64,000 bases of DNA, taken from assembly GCA_003173895.1 (NCBI GenBank), contig PJMG01000005.1:18275-82274 (forward strand). Direction: 5' to 3'. Positions 23,863 to 31,683 of the stretch are shown in pieces (position 1 is the first letter of the stretch; each line of letters begins with the position of its first letter). Source of the DNA: Candidatus Levyibacteriota bacterium. GTDB lineage: Bacteria; Patescibacteriota; Microgenomatia; Levybacterales; UBA12049. The notes beneath the pieces are model-generated. The model was given only the letters and a program-made list of their open reading frames with translations, searched no databases and was not told the origin of the DNA. Both the position numbers and the translations under genes were made by a program.

Positions 23863-23993
23863 TTAATATAACCTAGAATTTTATTGAAAACCTCTACCTC
23901 TCTTGCTATACTATGGAATCTGAAATGCTAAAATTAGAAGCTGGATTTCAAGAAGCCACTCCTTAATAGGTTTAAAGCGAAGTTTTATAATGT

Positions 23994-24065
23994 CGGGGGT
24001 AAAGGACTTGAACCTTCGACCTCACGGTCCCAAACCGCGCGCTCTACCAACTGAGCTAACCCCCG
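23994..24065 (-). tRNA. tRNA-Pro (anticodon UGG)
   Basis: Manual cloverleaf fold. Acceptor CGGGGGU/ACCCCCG; D-arm GCUC-AGUUGGUA-GAGC; anticodon stem CGCGG/CCGUG with loop UUUGGGA; T-arm GAAGG-UUCAAGU-CCUUU. CCA is not encoded. Confidence 0.8.
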
Positions 24066-25051: not shown

Positions 25052-25618
25052 TTATTTATTCTCTGTTTTTTGCGCCGATTCCCTTAGAACCCAATTATGT
25101 GATACAGTAGGTTCACTACATAAATTGCGATTAAAACAGCATGGTCTTCTCATGCCTTTATTGAGCTTTGATAGCGCTACTTCTATATGCTTTTGACGCG
25201 TTTCTGGAGTTTTAACTGCACGAACCCAACGAATCCAATCCCAACGGGCCATTGGTGTAATATCTTTCCATAAAGCTTCAGCTTTGGGTGAAGTTGCTAA
25301 TGTTTTTCTTAAATCCTCAGGCACATCAGGTTCTATCCACTCTTTGGTCGGTTCTAGCGAAACTTTTATAATATCGTTCGCTTCTGCGTGAATTTCATCA
25401 AGCAACTTTTTATCAGGCCTAAACCAATGACTTGATCCCTGTCCGGGTACATAATGGCCATCCGGTTCTAGCACTGCCTTAAAAGGGACATTATTTAAAG
25501 TACCCTTAACCATAGTCATTCCTCTGGACGGAAGTTTGGCGCTTGCCTCATTAGGTAGTTTGAGAATTGTCCAGGAATTGATATTAAATAGTTTTGTTTC
25601 AAAACTTATAGTGGACAT
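25052..25618 (-). CDS. DUF1905/YdeI-family protein
   Basis: C-terminal PMARWDWIRWV...KTPETRQKHIE block typical of the YdeI/OmpD-associated family. Confidence 0.5.
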   Translation of the reverse strand: MSTISFETKLFNINSWTILKLPNEASAKLPSRGMTMVKGTLNNVPFKAVLEPDGHYVPGQGSSHWFRPDKKLLDEIHAEANDIIKVSLEPTKEWIEPDVPEDLRKTLATSPKAEALWKDITPMARWDWIRWVRAVKTPETRQKHIEVALSKLNKGMRRPCCFNRNLCSEPTVSHNWVLRESAQKTENK

Positions 25619-25654
25619 ATACTATATGTAGTATACCAAAGATTAAAAATTCTG

Positions 25655-25727
25655 GGTGGCTGACGGGTGATGCTCCCGCTACCTCCTGTTCCACAAACAG
25701 GCGTTCTGCTGTTGAACTACAGCCACC
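25655..25727 (-). tRNA. tRNA-His-like cloverleaf (anticodon GUG, G-1:C73) with non-canonical D and T loops
   Basis: Perfect 7-bp acceptor stem GUGGCUG/CAGCCAC plus an extra 5' G paired to discriminator C. D-stem GUUC/GAAC, anticodon stem CCUGU/ACAGG with loop UUGUGGA, T-stem GCGGG/CCCGU. D-loop AACAGCA has no GG and T-loop AGCAUCA has no UUC. Confidence 0.5.
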
Positions 25728-25730
25728 ATA

Positions 25731-26249
25731 TTATTTATTTAATAATAAAGTTAATTTATCAAATTCGTTCTTATAATGATGTACTAAATAGTGACAATTA
25801 CTACAGAGCCAGATTAAGTTAGTAAGATTATTATTTTTTCTATTTTTATCATAATGATGAATCATTAATACTCTTTTATCAGTTGTTTTACATAATATAC
25901 ATACTCGATCTATATTTGAATCAATCAAAATTCTTCTATATGCTGATTCACCGTATTTCCAGTTTTTATGATTTTCTCCTATAAAAACCTTTTCATTTCT
26001 CCAAATTGTTTGACATTGTTTATTGCAAAAATATTTACCACTCTTTGATCTTTTTAGTGCTAAAGGAGATTTATAAACTTTCTTATTACAAATCGAACAA
26101 TTAACTATTTTACCTTTTAAATTGCCTTTATTTCTACATATTGCTGAACAATATTTTCCCCAGCCTTTTTTTATATGACTTGGTTTAGCATAAAATATAT
26201 TTTTACATTCCAGGCATATATTTTTGGGCATGATTAATTTATAAATCAA
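25731..26249 (-). CDS. HNH endonuclease with N-terminal zinc-finger repeats
   Basis: Two CxxC...GKYCSxxC/GKYFCNKQC repeats followed by an HNH core (HHYDKNRKNNNLTNLIWLCSNCHYLVHH). A TTGACA-N17-TTATAA promoter lies upstream on the minus strand (~26262). Confidence 0.7.
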   Translation of the reverse strand: MIYKLIMPKNICLECKNIFYAKPSHIKKGWGKYCSAICRNKGNLKGKIVNCSICNKKVYKSPLALKRSKSGKYFCNKQCQTIWRNEKVFIGENHKNWKYGESAYRRILIDSNIDRVCILCKTTDKRVLMIHHYDKNRKNNNLTNLIWLCSNCHYLVHHYKNEFDKLTLLLNK

Positions 26250-26290
26250 TATATATTATATTGTCAAAGAACAAGTTTAAATAGAAACTG

Positions 26291-26317
26291 ACGCTCTAAC
26301 CATTGAGCTATGGCCAC
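26291..26317 (-). pseudogene. Orphan 5' half of a canonical tRNA-His (G-1, acceptor strand, D-arm, no downstream partner)
   Basis: Minus-strand GGUGGCCAUAGCUCAAUGGUUAGAGCG matches tRNA-His 5' halves such as E. coli GGUGGCUAUAGCUCAGUUGGUAGAGC. No anticodon arm, T-arm or 3' acceptor strand follows. Confidence 0.45.
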
Positions 26318-26388
26318 CAAACTAGCTTAAATTATATCATTGAATAAGAATATTTTCTATTAAATAAATATTTTATATAATACTTTTT

Positions 26389-26976
26389 ATGGAAGATTTT
26401 AGAGCAATTGGTCCAAACTTAGCAAAACTTATGCCATCTTATCTGGATGGACAAATTAAAACTAGTCCAGAATCTACGGGTTTAGAGATTAAGACACAAG
26501 AATTTTATGCTAATCTAGAAACTATTTTAGATGGTAAAAATTTAAAAGAAGGAACTATTGGAGGTAATGATGAAAATCAAATAAAAGCTTTTGTAGAAAT
26601 AGCTAAAACTTTAGGATTTGGAGAACTTTTTTCTAGTGAGGAATTGCCTCGATATGTTTCATTAAAAATCGGTCGTGTAGAAGATCATTCAAATATTCTA
26701 GGTCTGGTTCTTACTAGTCGTTATGGATGGACTCATAAAGGTACGGATATAACTATGAGCGTTTTAACTTCTCCCAATGCTAGTTTAATTTCTGCGACTT
26801 CAGAACCTAGTAATTTTTCTATACTCAATGAGCCTGACGAAGAAAATACGCCAGAAACTGTTTTGTGGAGACAACATTTGTCTACTGAAGGAGAAATAAC
26901 AGGAATAAGTAAACTCTTAACTGATGGTTTAAGTGGTAGTGCTCCCTATTCTATAGAATGGCTTTCTAGTTTTTAG
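26389..26976 (+). CDS. Hypothetical protein
   Basis: 195-aa ORF. Confidence 0.45.
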   Translation: MEDFRAIGPNLAKLMPSYLDGQIKTSPESTGLEIKTQEFYANLETILDGKNLKEGTIGGNDENQIKAFVEIAKTLGFGELFSSEELPRYVSLKIGRVEDHSNILGLVLTSRYGWTHKGTDITMSVLTSPNASLISATSEPSNFSILNEPDEENTPETVLWRQHLSTEGEITGISKLLTDGLSGSAPYSIEWLSSF

Positions 26977-27160
26977 GTTTATCTGCGGGAGGGGAATCTG
27001 GACTAGGAGGATTTAAAGGTTGATCTGGGATTACAGGCTTTTTAAATACATCTCCTCCACGTCTGCGTCGCTCTTGTTCTGCTTGTTTTTTGCTAAGAGC
27101 ATCTGCTAGTTGTTTTGCAATATCTGGGTTTTGTTCTGGTTCTTGAGTATGCATAATCAT
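26966..27160 (-). CDS. Small charged, Pro-rich protein (64 aa)
   Basis: Immediately downstream of the P-loop kinase gene on the same strand, with a 3-nt gap. Confidence 0.35.
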   Translation of the reverse strand: MIMHTQEPEQNPDIAKQLADALSKKQAEQERRRRGGDVFKKPVIPDQPLNPPSPDSPPADKPKN

Positions 27161-27163
27161 ATT

Positions 27164-28261
27164 TTAATCCTCCAGCGTAAGTTTAGCAATTTCACTAAAC
27201 TGCGCTGCCCACTCTAAAACTTTTGGATCACTAACATCTAAAATATTTAATGACTTTGATCCGTTAGATATGTGATTTGAATTATCTATTATTCCAGTTT
27301 GTAAAATAGAATTGGCAGGGAGTCCGTTTATAAGTGTTAAAAAATTAATTAATCCCATTCCACTTTCAATAATAGCTTTTAGTGGAACTGTCCTATCTCT
27401 ATAAATGACTGCTCTTCTTAAACATTCTTCCAAAGGCGTATAAACATAAGTTAAAACTACTTTGTAACCTTTAGCTACACAGTCTAAAATTTGTTCTAAG
27501 TTTTTATCTAATTTTCTAAATGAACCTTCGTAAAATACGTTAAGATTGCGTCTTAAAGCTTCATCAAAAATTTCGTCTGATAAGTGATGCGCTATTTCAC
27601 TACTAGCTTCGATATGAGCCCTATTTTTATGATCATAGCCTGGGATGGCATGTTCTCTAAGAGCATCAGGATCTGCACTAACTATATGAGAATTTTGAAC
27701 TAAAACTCCTTCTCGAGCTAAAGATTTACCTGCTCCCATAGGTCCTGCTAAAATTACTATCATTTTAGGATCTGTAGCTTCCTTTCCGTCTAAAATTTCA
27801 TGTACTATTTGAGCTTTTATATCTTGAAAATCACTATGTGCGAGTCTATCTCTTACCTGTTGGACTAATGTAGTATATTCATCAGATTGAGTTAATTGTC
27901 CTAGTCTAATTTCGGAAATTTTAATAAGATTTCTTAAAGTTTCTAAAGCTTTATTTTGAAGAGCCTTATATGCTTGAAGATATTCTGGAAGAGTTAAACC
28001 CATTTCATGTAGTTTTATCTCTGTATCTAATTCAGAGTTAGTGTATGCATTAATAACATTGGAATTAGTAGTAAGATTTAGTCCATTAGTTTTTAAATGT
28101 TCTAATTCTCCAAATAAGGCTTTTCCTTCTTCTGGATTTTTAATAACGTAAAAATTAGTAGCTATCTCAAGTTCTTCTAAAGAAACCTGAGTACGGGGAG
28201 TTTTTTCTATATCCCTAGTTTGGAGATCAATTCTTGGCAGATTTTGCTCCGTCATATTCAT
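27164..28261 (-). CDS. P-loop kinase, zeta-toxin/AAA_33-like, with N-terminal extension
   Basis: Walker A ILAGPMGAGKSLA in the C-terminal ~200 aa. Overall layout resembles zeta-toxin / nucleotide-kinase folds. Confidence 0.45.
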   Translation of the reverse strand: MNMTEQNLPRIDLQTRDIEKTPRTQVSLEELEIATNFYVIKNPEEGKALFGELEHLKTNGLNLTTNSNVINAYTNSELDTEIKLHEMGLTLPEYLQAYKALQNKALETLRNLIKISEIRLGQLTQSDEYTTLVQQVRDRLAHSDFQDIKAQIVHEILDGKEATDPKMIVILAGPMGAGKSLAREGVLVQNSHIVSADPDALREHAIPGYDHKNRAHIEASSEIAHHLSDEIFDEALRRNLNVFYEGSFRKLDKNLEQILDCVAKGYKVVLTYVYTPLEECLRRAVIYRDRTVPLKAIIESGMGLINFLTLINGLPANSILQTGIIDNSNHISNGSKSLNILDVSDPKVLEWAAQFSEIAKLTLED

Positions 28262-28358
28262 TAGTGTCTAAAAAATGACACATTAATATTATAAGCTATT
28301 TTACCTTATTTTGCAAACTTATAGTAAATAGCAAGCAATAGCAGTATAATGGCTTATT

Positions 28359-29609
28359 ATGTCTTCTGAAAGACAACCTATCAGCATGCCTTCTTCGATT
28401 AATGGAGGAGAAAATTTTATAAAAGATGTGATGCCAACAGCCACTATGGCGGAAGTCATAAAAATAGTGGAATTAATGAGCAACTTGAAAGATAGTGATA
28501 AAGTAGTTATACAAATGGGAGGACCATTAGGTGATACTACAGTTCAAACAGCTCAACTTCGAGGTCTATTAAATATAATAGATTATTTAGATAAAAAAGT
28601 TTCTATAAGTGTTTGTGTGGATGCTGATAAACAGAAATTATTAGAACCATATGAAAAAATTCATAAAAATCTTCAAGTAATTGGAGTTTCAAATACTTCC
28701 GATGCAACTAATAATTTAATTCAAGATGCTAGAGATAGTGGTAAGAGTATTTTTATTTTTGATACCAGAGATAAAAAAAACTCACCTTCGGGAACTAAAC
28801 TTAGAATTGATAAAGAATATAATGAAGGAAAAAATACTACAATTGTTAGAGTTTCTAATGTTTTTAAAGCTGCTCTTTTTTCATACGAGGATTCAGGATT
28901 TGATAGAGTCGGAATTTTTATGAAAGGTCTATTTAATCTACCCGCGAACTCATTTTCTGATAGAAAAGCCAGACCACATATTCCTATTATAGGAAGTCGA
29001 GAAGAGTTAAGAGAAATATTTAACGAAGAACTAGGAATTGATTATAATACTGTTCAGATTACTATTTTACCTGAAGCCGGTATAGCTGAAAAAAGATATC
29101 CACTACTCTACTGGTTTAAAGCATTCAGAAAAACTTTATCATATTTAGCAGAACATAACTTTGACAAAAATATTACTCTAAATATTATTTATAATCAGGA
29201 TGCTCATCCAGAAATGATCACTCCACTCAGACTTTTTTCTCTAGCATTTTTAGGTAGTGGTATAAAGGGAAAAGTAAATTTCCTTTCTGGTCCTATAGAA
29301 AATATTGCTAAATTTTTAGCTACTCAAGATATCGTAGATACTAATGACACGGGATTTAATCATATCGCTGCAGGACTTACTTTTTATGATGACAATGGAA
29401 ATGAATTGAGAGATCAGGAAACTCCTGAAGTAGTTGGAGTTTATTTAAATTCCCATTTAATGGAGGATTGGACACTAAATGAAAAACAAAGAGGTATGGC
29501 ACCTGATGTTTTAACATATAGAGGCATAAAAGAAGTGGAACCAGAATTAGTAGCACTTTATAATCTGCAAGCTATGTTAAGAAGAGGATTATTAAATTAT
29601 TTTAGTTAA
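28359..29609 (+). CDS. Hypothetical protein
   Basis: 416-aa ORF. Confidence 0.45.
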   Translation: MSSERQPISMPSSINGGENFIKDVMPTATMAEVIKIVELMSNLKDSDKVVIQMGGPLGDTTVQTAQLRGLLNIIDYLDKKVSISVCVDADKQKLLEPYEKIHKNLQVIGVSNTSDATNNLIQDARDSGKSIFIFDTRDKKNSPSGTKLRIDKEYNEGKNTTIVRVSNVFKAALFSYEDSGFDRVGIFMKGLFNLPANSFSDRKARPHIPIIGSREELREIFNEELGIDYNTVQITILPEAGIAEKRYPLLYWFKAFRKTLSYLAEHNFDKNITLNIIYNQDAHPEMITPLRLFSLAFLGSGIKGKVNFLSGPIENIAKFLATQDIVDTNDTGFNHIAAGLTFYDDNGNELRDQETPEVVGVYLNSHLMEDWTLNEKQRGMAPDVLTYRGIKEVEPELVALYNLQAMLRRGLLNYFS

Positions 29610-29616
29610 TTTATAA

Positions 29617-31509
29617 TTATTGATTAGCTATGATGACGTCATAAGGCTCATTTAAATAATCACAAATTTCTTGCAATTCATCTTGGGTATATGCTTCTCC
29701 TTTTCCAAAGACCTTAGATAATAAGATTATCTGATTTATAGTATCAGCAGCTCTACGAAGAGGTTCAGTTACTCGTATAAATCCTTTTTTATTAACAGAT
29801 TGAGTAGGGTCTAAGGTATAACGCGAATAACGCGTATTTTTAAAAGTAAGAGCATTTTGTAAATGTAAAGCAGTAGTCATAGGCTCTTGTGTCATATATT
29901 GTCCGATTAATCTGCTTATAAGTACCATAAATTCTGCTACAATTCTTTCAGAGGTCCTATCTAAGAAGTATTTGTTATCTATGGAATGAATATATTCTCC
30001 ATGTTCATGTCTTTTCCTTGCTAATGTATCAGCAATAGTTCGAGCTTGTTGTAATACTCTACCCTTTTGGGTATTTTCCATATAGGGTAGATCTCCCATA
30101 GCGTAAGTTAAGTTATTAGTAATATATATTGTAGTTAATTCTAAATTTAAATTTGGATCTACTCCATCTTCAAAAAACTCCTTATTAAAATCAATAGTAA
30201 ATGTTATGGTAGGGTGAGTCATACCAGCAGCCATATTTAAATTACCATAAGCAAATTCATCGGGGAAAATTGGTACACCCAATTGTTTATAACGTCTTTT
30301 AATAGCTTCTTCTATTAATTCAGGTTTACCTGCTAAAAGCGACGCAGCATCACCAGTACTTATTTCTAATCTAAATCTTCTCTCTGATAATTTTTTAACC
30401 CAAAATGCATCTTCAAAAAGTTTAGCTTCTTCGGTATCAACAGTAATCGCCTTTTTTTGTATTCTTCTTTGCATTATATTTTCAGCTTCTACATTAGATT
30501 GTCTAGCTAGTTCAATAAGTAAAGGTTCAAATTGCCCGGGAGCTATAGGTAAAATTAATGGTGAAGGTAACTCTTCTTCTACCTTTTCTTCTTTTCTTTT
30601 GAAAGCAGTTGCTATTTTAGTATGAAATTTAATTAAGATTTCTTCATTAGTATCTTCATCTGTAGAATCTACATAACTTCTTACAGACTCCCAAAGTGCG
30701 CGTTCTGTTTTTCCTTTTGGAAAGTTGTTATCATCTTTCATAAAAGAAAACAGTTTATTAGCATAATATGTTAAAGCCATTTTTAACTGTCCACTATGCA
30801 TATACTTACCTTGAAATTTCCCGGGAGTTTCTATAAGACCAATCATCTGAGATAAAGTACCATAACTAGTATAAGTATCCTCAGGTAATTTAACTCCTAA
30901 CAGAGTTTTACGTTCCTCGTCTGAGAGTAATAAATTATCTCCATCAAATTTAACATCCATCATAAAATGTGTAAGAGCGTTAACCATTTTAGCTGGAATG
31001 TGATTTTTTTTAGTTTCTGCTTCTTCGGGAGTTAAATAATACTCATCAAATTGGTCTTGTAAACTTTCTACATATGCTTTATCTAAATAGGGAGATTCCC
31101 ATAGAACCTTTAAATTTTTTTCTACTGTTGGTTTTTCACTATCGCGCCTTAACCTTTCTTCACGAGATTGTTGTGCGTATGCATTGAGAGTAGGTATAGC
31201 CTGTTCTTCTAAAAAACTAATAAGTTTAGTTTGTCCTATAGCATCAGTAATTCGCTGTCTGATTTTACTTGTAGTAACAGTTTCCTGAGAAAATAAAGCT
31301 GATCGAGCCAATCTCCCTTTTTCAGATTGAGCGGAATCAATAAAAGTCTGTTGATCTCCTTTTGAAAGAGGGTTAATGATACCTTCTCTTAAGTGCGCTT
31401 CTAATTCATCAATATTTTCAGTGCCTAATAAATTTGCATACGCGGTTTCATTAATTATAGATCGAGGATCTTTTGGATTATAATTTGAATCACTTTCTCT
31501 TAATGGCAT
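29617..31509 (-). CDS. Large hypothetical protein
   Basis: 630-aa ORF. Confidence 0.5.
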   Translation of the reverse strand: MPLRESDSNYNPKDPRSIINETAYANLLGTENIDELEAHLREGIINPLSKGDQQTFIDSAQSEKGRLARSALFSQETVTTSKIRQRITDAIGQTKLISFLEEQAIPTLNAYAQQSREERLRRDSEKPTVEKNLKVLWESPYLDKAYVESLQDQFDEYYLTPEEAETKKNHIPAKMVNALTHFMMDVKFDGDNLLLSDEERKTLLGVKLPEDTYTSYGTLSQMIGLIETPGKFQGKYMHSGQLKMALTYYANKLFSFMKDDNNFPKGKTERALWESVRSYVDSTDEDTNEEILIKFHTKIATAFKRKEEKVEEELPSPLILPIAPGQFEPLLIELARQSNVEAENIMQRRIQKKAITVDTEEAKLFEDAFWVKKLSERRFRLEISTGDAASLLAGKPELIEEAIKRRYKQLGVPIFPDEFAYGNLNMAAGMTHPTITFTIDFNKEFFEDGVDPNLNLELTTIYITNNLTYAMGDLPYMENTQKGRVLQQARTIADTLARKRHEHGEYIHSIDNKYFLDRTSERIVAEFMVLISRLIGQYMTQEPMTTALHLQNALTFKNTRYSRYTLDPTQSVNKKGFIRVTEPLRRAADTINQIILLSKVFGKGEAYTQDELQEICDYLNEPYDVIIANQ

Positions 31510-31610
31510 AATTTATTACGTTGATGGACAGGAGCTTAAAACATTATACTATGTGGCTAATTCTTAATCAATCAGATTTTGTTGAATCTACGACAAAAAT
31601 TATTGAAGTG

Positions 31611-31683
31611 TGCGCCCAGAGGGATTCGAACCCCCGACCCCATCGTTAGAACCGATATGCTCTATCCACTGAGCTATGGGCGC
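31611..31683 (-). tRNA. tRNA-Arg (anticodon UCU)
   Basis: Cloverleaf fold. Acceptor GCGCCCA/UGGGCGC; D-arm GCUC-AGUGGAUA-GAGC; anticodon stem UAUCG/CGAUG with loop GUUCUAA; T-arm GGGGG-UUCGAAU-CCCUC. Closely resembles E. coli tRNA-Arg(UCU). Confidence 0.8.

Follow-up and report, generated by a model that had tools for sequence, protein, structure and literature searches.

The region described here lies on the minus strand of a 64-kb stretch of DNA (the window) from Candidatus Levyibacteriota bacterium contig PJMG01000005.1, whose source genome has ~30% G+C. Within it an HNH endonuclease gene is followed directly by a complete tRNA-His(GUG) gene and preceded by an orphan 5' part of a second tRNA-His, all three on the same strand. 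An earlier note on this DNA had suggested a homing-type HNH element that disrupted the resident tRNA-His and supplied or co-opted a replacement. That suggestion is supported by four kinds of evidence given below: the linkage of HNH gene and tRNA-His at 80 of 80 loci, the orphan halves, pairs of empty and occupied sites, and an intact gene at the orthologous site of a relative. We consider it quite probable that this region represents one member of a selfish cassette family, ~0.6 kb in size, which occurs widely in the Candidate Phyla Radiation (CPR)/Patescibacteria and replaces tRNA-His. The cassette appears to comprise a short left end, its own sigma-70-type promoter, the HNH gene and a complete tRNA-His(GUG) directly after the stop codon. 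The features, in the order of transcription, are as follows.

26331 to 26359, minus strand: promoter-like site of the disrupted resident tRNA-His, TAGAAA-17 nt-TG-TATAAT (consensus scan)
26285 to 26318, minus strand: orphan 5' part (G-1 to U33) of a canonical type I tRNA-His (nhmmer, Rfam, match to locus L270)
26268 to 26284, minus strand: junction and putative cassette left end (direct reading, family motif)
26238 to 26267, minus strand: putative cassette promoter, TTGACA (26267-26262), 17-nt spacer, TTATAA/TATAAA (sequence, family conservation)
25731 to 26231, minus strand: free-standing zinc-finger HNH endonuclease gene, 166 aa (open reading frame, motif, PHROG profile)
25655 to 25727, minus strand: tRNA-His(GUG) with G-1:C73, subtype group A2 (ARAGORN, Rfam, fold, covariation)
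25619 to 25654, minus strand: native downstream flank leading into the DUF1905/OmdA gene (homology to loci L270, L092, L165 and L005)

The HNH open reading frame (ORF) begins with an ATG at 26231 and ends with a stop codon at 25733-25731, leaving 3 nt before G-1 of the tRNA (25727), so that the stop lies immediately 5' of tRNA-His as first reported. Its product contains two C-x2-C...C-x3-C zinc fingers followed by a CxxC-HH-N-CxxC-H nuclease motif. Residues C111, C114, H125, H126, N138, C143, C146, H147 and H151 are invariant among 23 homologues; the family alignment has 46 invariant columns, and every family-invariant Cys, His and Asn is kept in the window protein. PHROG 1271 ('HNH endonuclease') matched residues 4-160 with E = 1.4e-15. 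The Pfam families HNH_3 (PF13392; 16.8 bits, cut-off 24.8) and zf-FCS matched below threshold, and sequence matches in the PDB were weak (IscB HNH, E = 2e-4; group II maturase, 0.0085; MYM zinc finger, 0.018). An AF2 model reached a pLDDT (predicted local distance difference test) of 86, and its best Foldseek PDB matches were mostly HNH nucleases, all with E > 0.05. By motif and profile, the protein is a predicted HNH endonuclease.

Database searches returned 634 homologues of ~165 aa, and the HNH protein is encoded in 440 GTDB species representatives. We fetched 80 of the HNH loci for comparison; all relatives fetched belong to CPR/Patescibacteria. A tRNA-His(GUG) gene lies directly 3' of the HNH gene, on the same strand, at 80/80 loci; ARAGORN called 77 of these, and the other three (L007, L021 and L055) were recovered by nhmmer. 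Some HNH proteins end in ...VAVVQK or ...WWL, which is the translated 5' end of the tRNA, indicating that the ORF often overlaps the tRNA gene. Viral contigs contained only distant homologues (at most 30% identity over the full length), none with an adjacent tRNA-His, and so give no sign of a phage vector. Within the 64-kb window there is no second HNH copy.

The tRNA-His call of the earlier note was borne out by two programs. ARAGORN reported tRNA-His(gtg) at 25654-25726(-), to which position 25727 adds G-1, and Rfam RF00005 accepted the gene with 49.4 bits (gathering score 29); all the other five tRNAs of the window score higher. The minimum free energy fold including G-1 is a cloverleaf with G-1:C73 (-30.8 kcal/mol, z = -3.2). 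The marks of a bacterial tRNA-His are thus present: a covariance-model score above threshold, the GUG anticodon and an encoded G-1 opposite C73. Both ARAGORN and a hidden Markov model (HMM) of the tRNA-His 5' half identified this as the sole tRNA-His of the window. The gene looks functional in design and is putatively the working copy. Its loops are unusual (D-loop AACAGCA, T-loop AGCAUCA), and the 19-nt T-arm pattern was used to collect further loci of this odd type, termed group A. Subtype A2 is defined by the D stem GTTC/GAAC, as in the window; A1 is another group-A subtype.

Upstream of the HNH gene, the orphan at 26318-26285 reads GGUGGCCAUAGCUCAAUGGUUAGAGCGUCAGUUU and contains G-1, the acceptor 5' strand, a canonical D arm with GG (AAUGGUUA), position 26, the anticodon-stem 5' strand and U32-U33. 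The 5' half described previously is therefore real, with its canonical D arm and no 3' half, although it spans 34 nt and not 27. It was the second-best match in the window to the tRNA-His 5'-half HMM (E = 7e-7), ahead of true non-His tRNAs, and gave a weak truncated match in Rfam. A resident 3' half was found nowhere in the 64-kb window. The same HMM revealed clear 5' orphans at ~20 related loci, ending at tRNA profile positions 33-39 and located 44-60 nt before the HNH ATG, and eroded remnants, varying in their degree of erosion, are visible at many more. For motif counts we used the upstream regions of 78 family loci, with expectations taken from shuffles: TGTGG, corresponding to the orphan anticodon plus G37, occurs 50-90 nt before the ATG (peak ~65) at 26/78 loci against 4% expected. 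Four loci (L046, L023, L009 and L204) also have a 3' orphan just downstream of the working tRNA. At L046 the acceptor strand of the 5' orphan (GGTGGTCG) exactly complements that of the 3' orphan (CGACCACC), and the working copy between them has a different acceptor. A recent origin of the orphan from the working copy, by local duplication or as a chimera, was rejected, since an orphan and its own working copy resembled each other in the acceptor no more than randomly paired ones did (permutation p = 0.41). We read the orphan as the remnant of a disrupted resident tRNA-His gene. At the 53 HNH-less group-A sites orphans are absent, save for one 23-nt partial duplicate of a group-A tRNA-His 5' end (GGTGGCTGTAGCTCAAAAGTAAG), which lies ~50 nt upstream of tRNA-His at L183 and may be the footprint of a lost cassette.

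Pairs of empty and occupied sites show the insertion itself. L185 (empty) and L204 (occupied) are ~73% identical in both flanks. The L185 tRNA-His reads ...TTTGTGGA ACAGAAAGT..., and the resident gene of L204 is split exactly at TGTGGA / ACAGA, that is, between tRNA positions 38 and 39. The L204 insert consists of TTTTCCACAAACC, a promoter, the HNH gene and a complete tRNA-His of another type, followed by AAATAAG. From this content it follows that the mobile unit includes the whole tRNA-His and that the orphans are the resident gene. In a second pair, L141 (empty) and L008 (occupied), the tRNA-Arg is identical; L141 has tRNA-His alone and L008 has orphan, HNH gene and tRNA-His.

For the window, the corresponding empty site is L270, a Candidatus Roizmanbacteria locus without an HNH gene, at which an intact canonical tRNA-His lies directly upstream of DUF1905/OmdA, the gene that also follows the tRNA in the window. 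The 5' half of the L270 gene matches the window orphan at ~30/34 positions, including GAGCGUCAG(G/U)UU, and likewise matches the orphans of L170, L189, L124, L007 and L008. Downstream of the L270 gene, a flank of 60-90 nt shows homology to the one at the occupied A2 loci L092, L165 and L005; the window retains only parts of this flank, AATTTTTAA and TTTGGTATA. Among five contexts anchored on OmdA, four were non-syntenic and uninformative, and the fifth was L270. Relatives were thus found to carry an intact tRNA-His without HNH at L270 as well as at L185 and L141, and presence/absence polymorphism at one site is seen three times: L185 against L204, L141 against L008, and L270 against L092, L165, L005 and the window. 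These genome comparisons show the cassette inserted between positions 38 and 39 of the resident tRNA-His.

At the junction, the left end forms an inverted repeat AGTTT/AAACT with 26285-26289. It is a diverged form of the family motif TGTGGA-N(3-8)-TCCACAG/A and aligns to L023 and L013 without the CCACA core. Across the family, CCACAG/A or CAGAA is found 40-70 nt before the ATG (peak ~50) at 44/78 loci against 4% expected, and, 46-55 nt before the ATG, CCACA occurs at 31/78 loci against 1.4% expected. A generic enrichment of inverted repeats upstream of the promoter was weak (perfect stems of at least 5 in 66%, compared with 43% of shuffles) and was dropped in favour of the position-specific counts.

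The putative cassette promoter lies 36 nt before the ATG. A strict consensus scan misses it because the -10 hexamer lacks T6. As promoter-consensus matches in the AT-rich window were not enriched over shuffles, the promoter calls rest on conservation across loci: TT[GT]AC, representing the -35 box, is present 30-50 nt before the ATG (peak ~37) at 51/78 loci, compared with 5% in shuffles. A -35 box ~36 nt from the start codon implies that the HNH mRNA is probably leaderless. The promoter-like site assigned to the resident gene ends 12 nt before the orphan G-1 and has 10/12 consensus matches with a TG extension; by eye, many of the 53 HNH-less group-A tRNA-His genes have a TGnTAnAAT box at a similar short distance before G-1.

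Which of the two tRNA-His versions is foreign was judged from their distribution. All neighbouring tRNAs in the window are canonical, so that the AGC-type elbow is limited to tRNA-His, and in CPR contigs with the odd tRNA-His the T loops of neighbouring tRNAs are all canonical or near-canonical (UUC/UCC). On deduplicated sites, which are not phylogenetically independent, A2 occurred 8 times with and 10 times without HNH, and A1 never with and 26 times without (Fisher p = 2.5e-4). The restriction of HNH to A2, the canonical neighbours and L270 together lead us to read the odd tRNA as foreign in the window, not native; because the canonical L270 gene matches the window orphan, it most likely arrived with the cassette. 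By comparison of loci, the resident gene of the window lineage was a canonical tRNA-His, and the working copy today is a different allele whose D-loop/T-loop elbow is altered yet compensated internally. Three states of one orthologous site then appear: the canonical gene by itself; a stub of its 5' half with HNH and A2; and A2 alone, a state we infer to follow from loss of the stub and HNH. The acceptor 3' strand CAGCCACC is shared, which offers an explanation for the missing 3' orphan in the window, with the right junction falling within the tRNA. At L140, at least 10 tandem GGAAATT repeats stand immediately upstream of an HNH-less A2 tRNA-His.

Beyond the window, the foreign tRNA types found at split resident genes show transfers, and in a crude UPGMA (unweighted pair group method with arithmetic mean) tree the HNH clusters broadly follow taxon labels. 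Among 36 HNH-bearing CPR loci the mean identity of tRNA-His was 0.64 compared with 0.71 for tRNA-Arg(TCT), with His lower in 545/630 pairs, which fits repeated replacement of tRNA-His. The same cassette family seems to sit at tRNA-His throughout CPR, swapping tRNA-His versions between lineages. Strong similarity of tRNA-His between genomes was not taken as evidence of recent transfer: group-A tRNA-His genes are 0.82-0.97 identical between genomes whose Arg/Gly tRNAs are 0.61-0.87 identical, a comparison confounded by selection through the T-arm pattern, and the HNH proteins are only ~60% identical.

In the model we propose, the HNH enzyme would cut cassette-free tRNA-His DNA near the anticodon loop, and repair from a cassette-bearing copy would install the cassette. 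With a whole replacement tRNA-His supplied by the cassette, the host would lose nothing. The working allele would arrive together with the cassette; where the resident 3' half is missing, recombination inside the acceptor 3' strand that both genes share would have replaced it. HNH and tRNA-His would be co-transcribed from the cassette promoter, with RNase P releasing the tRNA and keeping G-1. Recombination between the two 5' halves could later remove HNH and stub, leaving the imported tRNA allele. The role of the TGTGGA...TCCACA palindrome is unexplained by this model.

Several points weigh against it. The window lacks a 3' orphan, and its copy of the left-end motif has diverged. Conservation of the orphans (0.72-0.86) exceeds that of the spacer (0.17-0.47) and of synonymous sites, which is not expected of a purely neutral relic. 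In most metagenomic cases the odd tRNA-His occurs without HNH (53, compared with 11-12 with HNH; ~65 in total), so that either secondary loss is frequent or some lineages have this type natively; the odd type is not confined to the element. Group-A tRNA-His must be native somewhere, because it is the victim in L185/L204. Within the A2 group, HNH proteins share only 55-69% identity, suggesting that the association is old in this clade and may now be mostly vertical. We infer cleavage, target site and mobility from genome comparisons only, and the model leaves unexplained how the cassette's own tRNA-His escapes cutting.

In one alternative, the orphan would travel with the cassette, for example as a left homology arm or regulatory piece, and the A2 tRNA-His would be native, the cassette having inserted in front of it. 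The L008 working tRNA-His is 100% identical to that of HNH-less L141, and the L008 orphan shares with it the rare acceptor GGTGGATG; orphans are alike within an HNH clade and more conserved than neutral DNA, and many HNH-less genomes carry group-A tRNA-His. Against a travelling orphan stand L270, with its intact type I tRNA-His at the orthologous site and the same downstream flank; L204, L046 and L023, where a foreign complete tRNA stands between the matching 5' and 3' orphans of a divided resident gene; and the position of the window orphan behind a promoter-like site of the kind that precedes HNH-less tRNA-His genes. A native A2 gene fits poorly with the occurrence of HNH only in that subtype (8/18 sites, compared with 0/26 for A1) and with an odd elbow limited to tRNA-His in these genomes. 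We regard this alternative as unlikely.

A domesticated HNH protein, no longer or never selfish, that is co-transcribed with tRNA-His as a partner (acting, for example, in processing or in regulation) and passed on vertically throughout CPR would account for the invariant gene order at 80/80 loci in many candidate phyla, for the strong purifying selection seen in the 46 invariant columns, for the broad agreement of HNH clusters with taxon labels and for the lack of close homologues in viral contigs. It is at odds with the patchy presence of HNH among near relatives, with split resident genes and orphans, which are insertion footprints, and with phage HNH endonucleases as the best family match of the protein. 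Moreover, tRNA-His appears fully functional without HNH in most related genomes. Domestication in place of an inserted selfish cassette is, on this evidence, quite improbable.

The cloverleaf of the working tRNA-His could be read as a decaying pseudogene or a structure other than a tRNA, and its score, the lowest among the window tRNAs, together with ARAGORN's failure at L007, L021 and L055, would fit. Alignment to relatives gave A18 and G19 in the D loop and A54 G55 C56 A57 U58 in the T loop. The only elbow positions changed are G18, U55, T54 and A58: the canonical pairs G18-U55 and T54-A58 are absent and G19-C56 is kept. Across 37 distinct group-A sequences, in an alignment whose T arm was fixed by the search pattern, 99.1% of stem cells were paired and 10 pairs showed compensatory double changes (102 cells). 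This covariation score was reached by 0/500 shuffles, and slid registers fell to 37-54% paired. G-1:C73, GUG, A18-G19 and the T loop A54 G55 C56 R57 U58 were invariant. These features, a covariance-model score of 49 bits against 29, and the gene's standing as the sole tRNA-His of the window make decay or a non-tRNA structure very improbable; the earlier note's alternative of a tRNA-like structure is not needed, and its 'minimalist' label does not hold: compensatory covariation is strong, G19:C56 is kept and the other two tertiary pairs are exchanged in a covarying manner.

In a tally of 82 HNH-linked tRNAs, G18 was absent from 17/17 with G55 and from none of ~62 with U55, so that G18:U55 became A18:G55 in all 17 cases, and T54:A58 was swapped to A54:U58 in two groups. 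Most cassette tRNA-His genes in the family are canonical. As the changes covary across the family, we argue for an alternative elbow rather than elbow loss. The loops read as the earlier note described, and 'degenerate' is the part of that description that did not hold: the change is better described as a coordinated exchange of tertiary partners in which G19:C56 is kept, a reading that draws on covariation.

Other unusual elbows were seen. HNH-adjacent L021 and L055 combine a GGCRGCA T loop with an A18 D loop. HNH-adjacent L028 has a D loop without GG and the T loop TTTGATT, and may have exchanged G19:C56 for A19:U56. The metagenome contigs L093, L196, L198 and part of L120 carry densely packed tRNA genes, up to ~21 of them within 5 kb; a TGCRA T loop (G55) is present in most of these tRNAs, with D loops seen without GG (A18), indicating that whole tRNA sets use the alternative elbow.

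Elbows with A18:G55, A54:U58 or GGCRGCA T loops occur in at least 24/82 cassettes, and neighbouring tRNAs of the same genomes are canonical. A speculative reading, to which we give little weight, is that the odd cassette elbows are self-immunity alleles and that the nuclease would recognise the most conserved D-loop or T-loop DNA of ordinary tRNA-His. If so, the cassette could carry only a tRNA with both tertiary partners changed; an arms race with a selfish nuclease would reshape the 'invariant' tRNA core and would drive the repeated replacement of tRNA-His across CPR. Independently of that reading, the covarying changes A18:G55 and A54:U58 are natural experiments on the tRNA elbow.

That orphan, HNH region and downstream 3' half form one intron-containing or split tRNA-His joined by splicing is hardly credible, even though the interruption falls within or beside the anticodon loop, the location of group I introns in bacterial tRNAs: no intron family matched in Rfam even at E = 10, the non-coding room (~53 nt before the ORF and 3 nt after it) is too small for a ribozyme core, the gene downstream forms a complete cloverleaf, the orphan acceptor pairs with only 5/7 bases of the 3' strand and its anticodon-stem strand is mismatched, and orphans are variably eroded in relatives.

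The closest analogues of the proposed cassette appear to be the mobile endonuclease ORFs (mORFs) of fungal mitochondria, known from atp6 of Allomyces macrogynus and from atp6, atp9, cox2 and nad3 of Glomus, which bring a foreign C-terminal gene segment and leave the native one as a remnant (PMC3630166). Like the cassette, mORFs place an endonuclease ORF in an essential gene together with an expressed, horizontally acquired replacement, with the native remnant beside it and the native and inserted copies differing in sequence type (PMC3630166). Their targets are protein-coding, only the C-terminal part is supplied, usually as an in-frame fusion, and the nucleases are LAGLIDADG or GIY-YIG (PMC3630166). 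The cassette differs in its bacterial host, tRNA target, whole replacement gene, own promoter, zinc-finger HNH nuclease and 5'-half remnant.

SegB of phage T4 is a free-standing homing endonuclease in a phage tRNA gene cluster. It resembles the cassette as a free-standing nuclease among tRNA genes whose spread by cleavage and repair drags neighbouring tRNAs along; it differs in being a GIY-YIG enzyme of a phage that acts during co-infection, and it is not known to split a tRNA gene or to leave orphan halves. Group I introns of Patescibacteria interrupt tRNA-Asn/Asp at position 35/36, and four tRNA-Asn introns carry HNH genes (PMC13011429). They share with the cassette the host phylum, the anticodon-loop target region and the nuclease superfamily (PMC13011429). 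Introns restore the gene by RNA splicing, in contrast to the cassette, which has no ribozyme and would restore function through a second complete gene. Islands and prophages driven by an integrase depend on tyrosine or serine recombinases, produce a duplicate of the tRNA 3' end and extend over many kilobases. A tRNA landing site, partial tRNA duplication at the junction and a regenerated intact tRNA are common to both; the cassette has no recombinase, measures 0.6 kb and usually leaves a 5' half. An integrase-type tRNA island was rejected for the window, where the unit holds a single 166-aa HNH ORF and no 3' repeat is present.

A full-text literature search found no description of an HNH-tRNA-His cassette, which we propose is a new, bacterial and tRNA-targeting form of the known 'endonuclease ORF plus replacement gene copy' elements. 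It would be an example from bacteria of a nuclease gene that enters an essential gene with no intron involved and brings along a full spare copy of what it destroys, and would show concretely how a tRNA gene can be replaced horizontally. The cassette may also help to explain why tRNA-His is conserved less than the adjoining tRNA-Arg in these bacteria. The predicted site-specific nuclease is compact and testable, with 166 aa, two zinc fingers, an HNH domain and a known insertion point. For annotation, orphan tRNA halves and ARAGORN-missed tRNA-His genes beside small 'hypothetical' HNH ORFs in CPR become interpretable.

The wider neighbourhood agrees with the earlier placing of the locus between tRNA-Pro (23992-24065) and poorly annotated genes, which lie upstream of it. 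The DUF1905/OmdA gene (25052-25618) encodes a protein with thousands of homologues at 75-82% identity, set in widely differing gene neighbourhoods, among them a 1.3-Mb contig with an acyl-CoA dehydrogenase gene, which suggests wide horizontal spread of this gene. In ~20 related loci tRNA-Arg(TCT) lies directly upstream of HNH/tRNA-His. In the window, tRNA-Arg(TCT) (31610-31683) is separated from the orphan by a 5.3-kb block (26389-31509) encoding a 195-aa unknown protein, a 64-aa ORF, a zeta-toxin/AAA_33-like protein of 365 aa, a 416-aa unknown protein and an RNB-domain protein of 630 aa. The block may be an inserted island; a tRNA-Arg 3' repeat was looked for there and none was found. At L008 (Levybacteria MFOV01000025.1, 3536-3900), an 88-aa GIY-YIG ORF (Pfam E = 9e-15) directly follows tRNA-Arg(TCT) and is itself followed by a 25-nt duplicate of the tRNA-Arg 3' end, an insertion absent from L141. 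This appears to be a second nuclease cassette with partial tRNA duplication, of mirror polarity to the HNH cassette.

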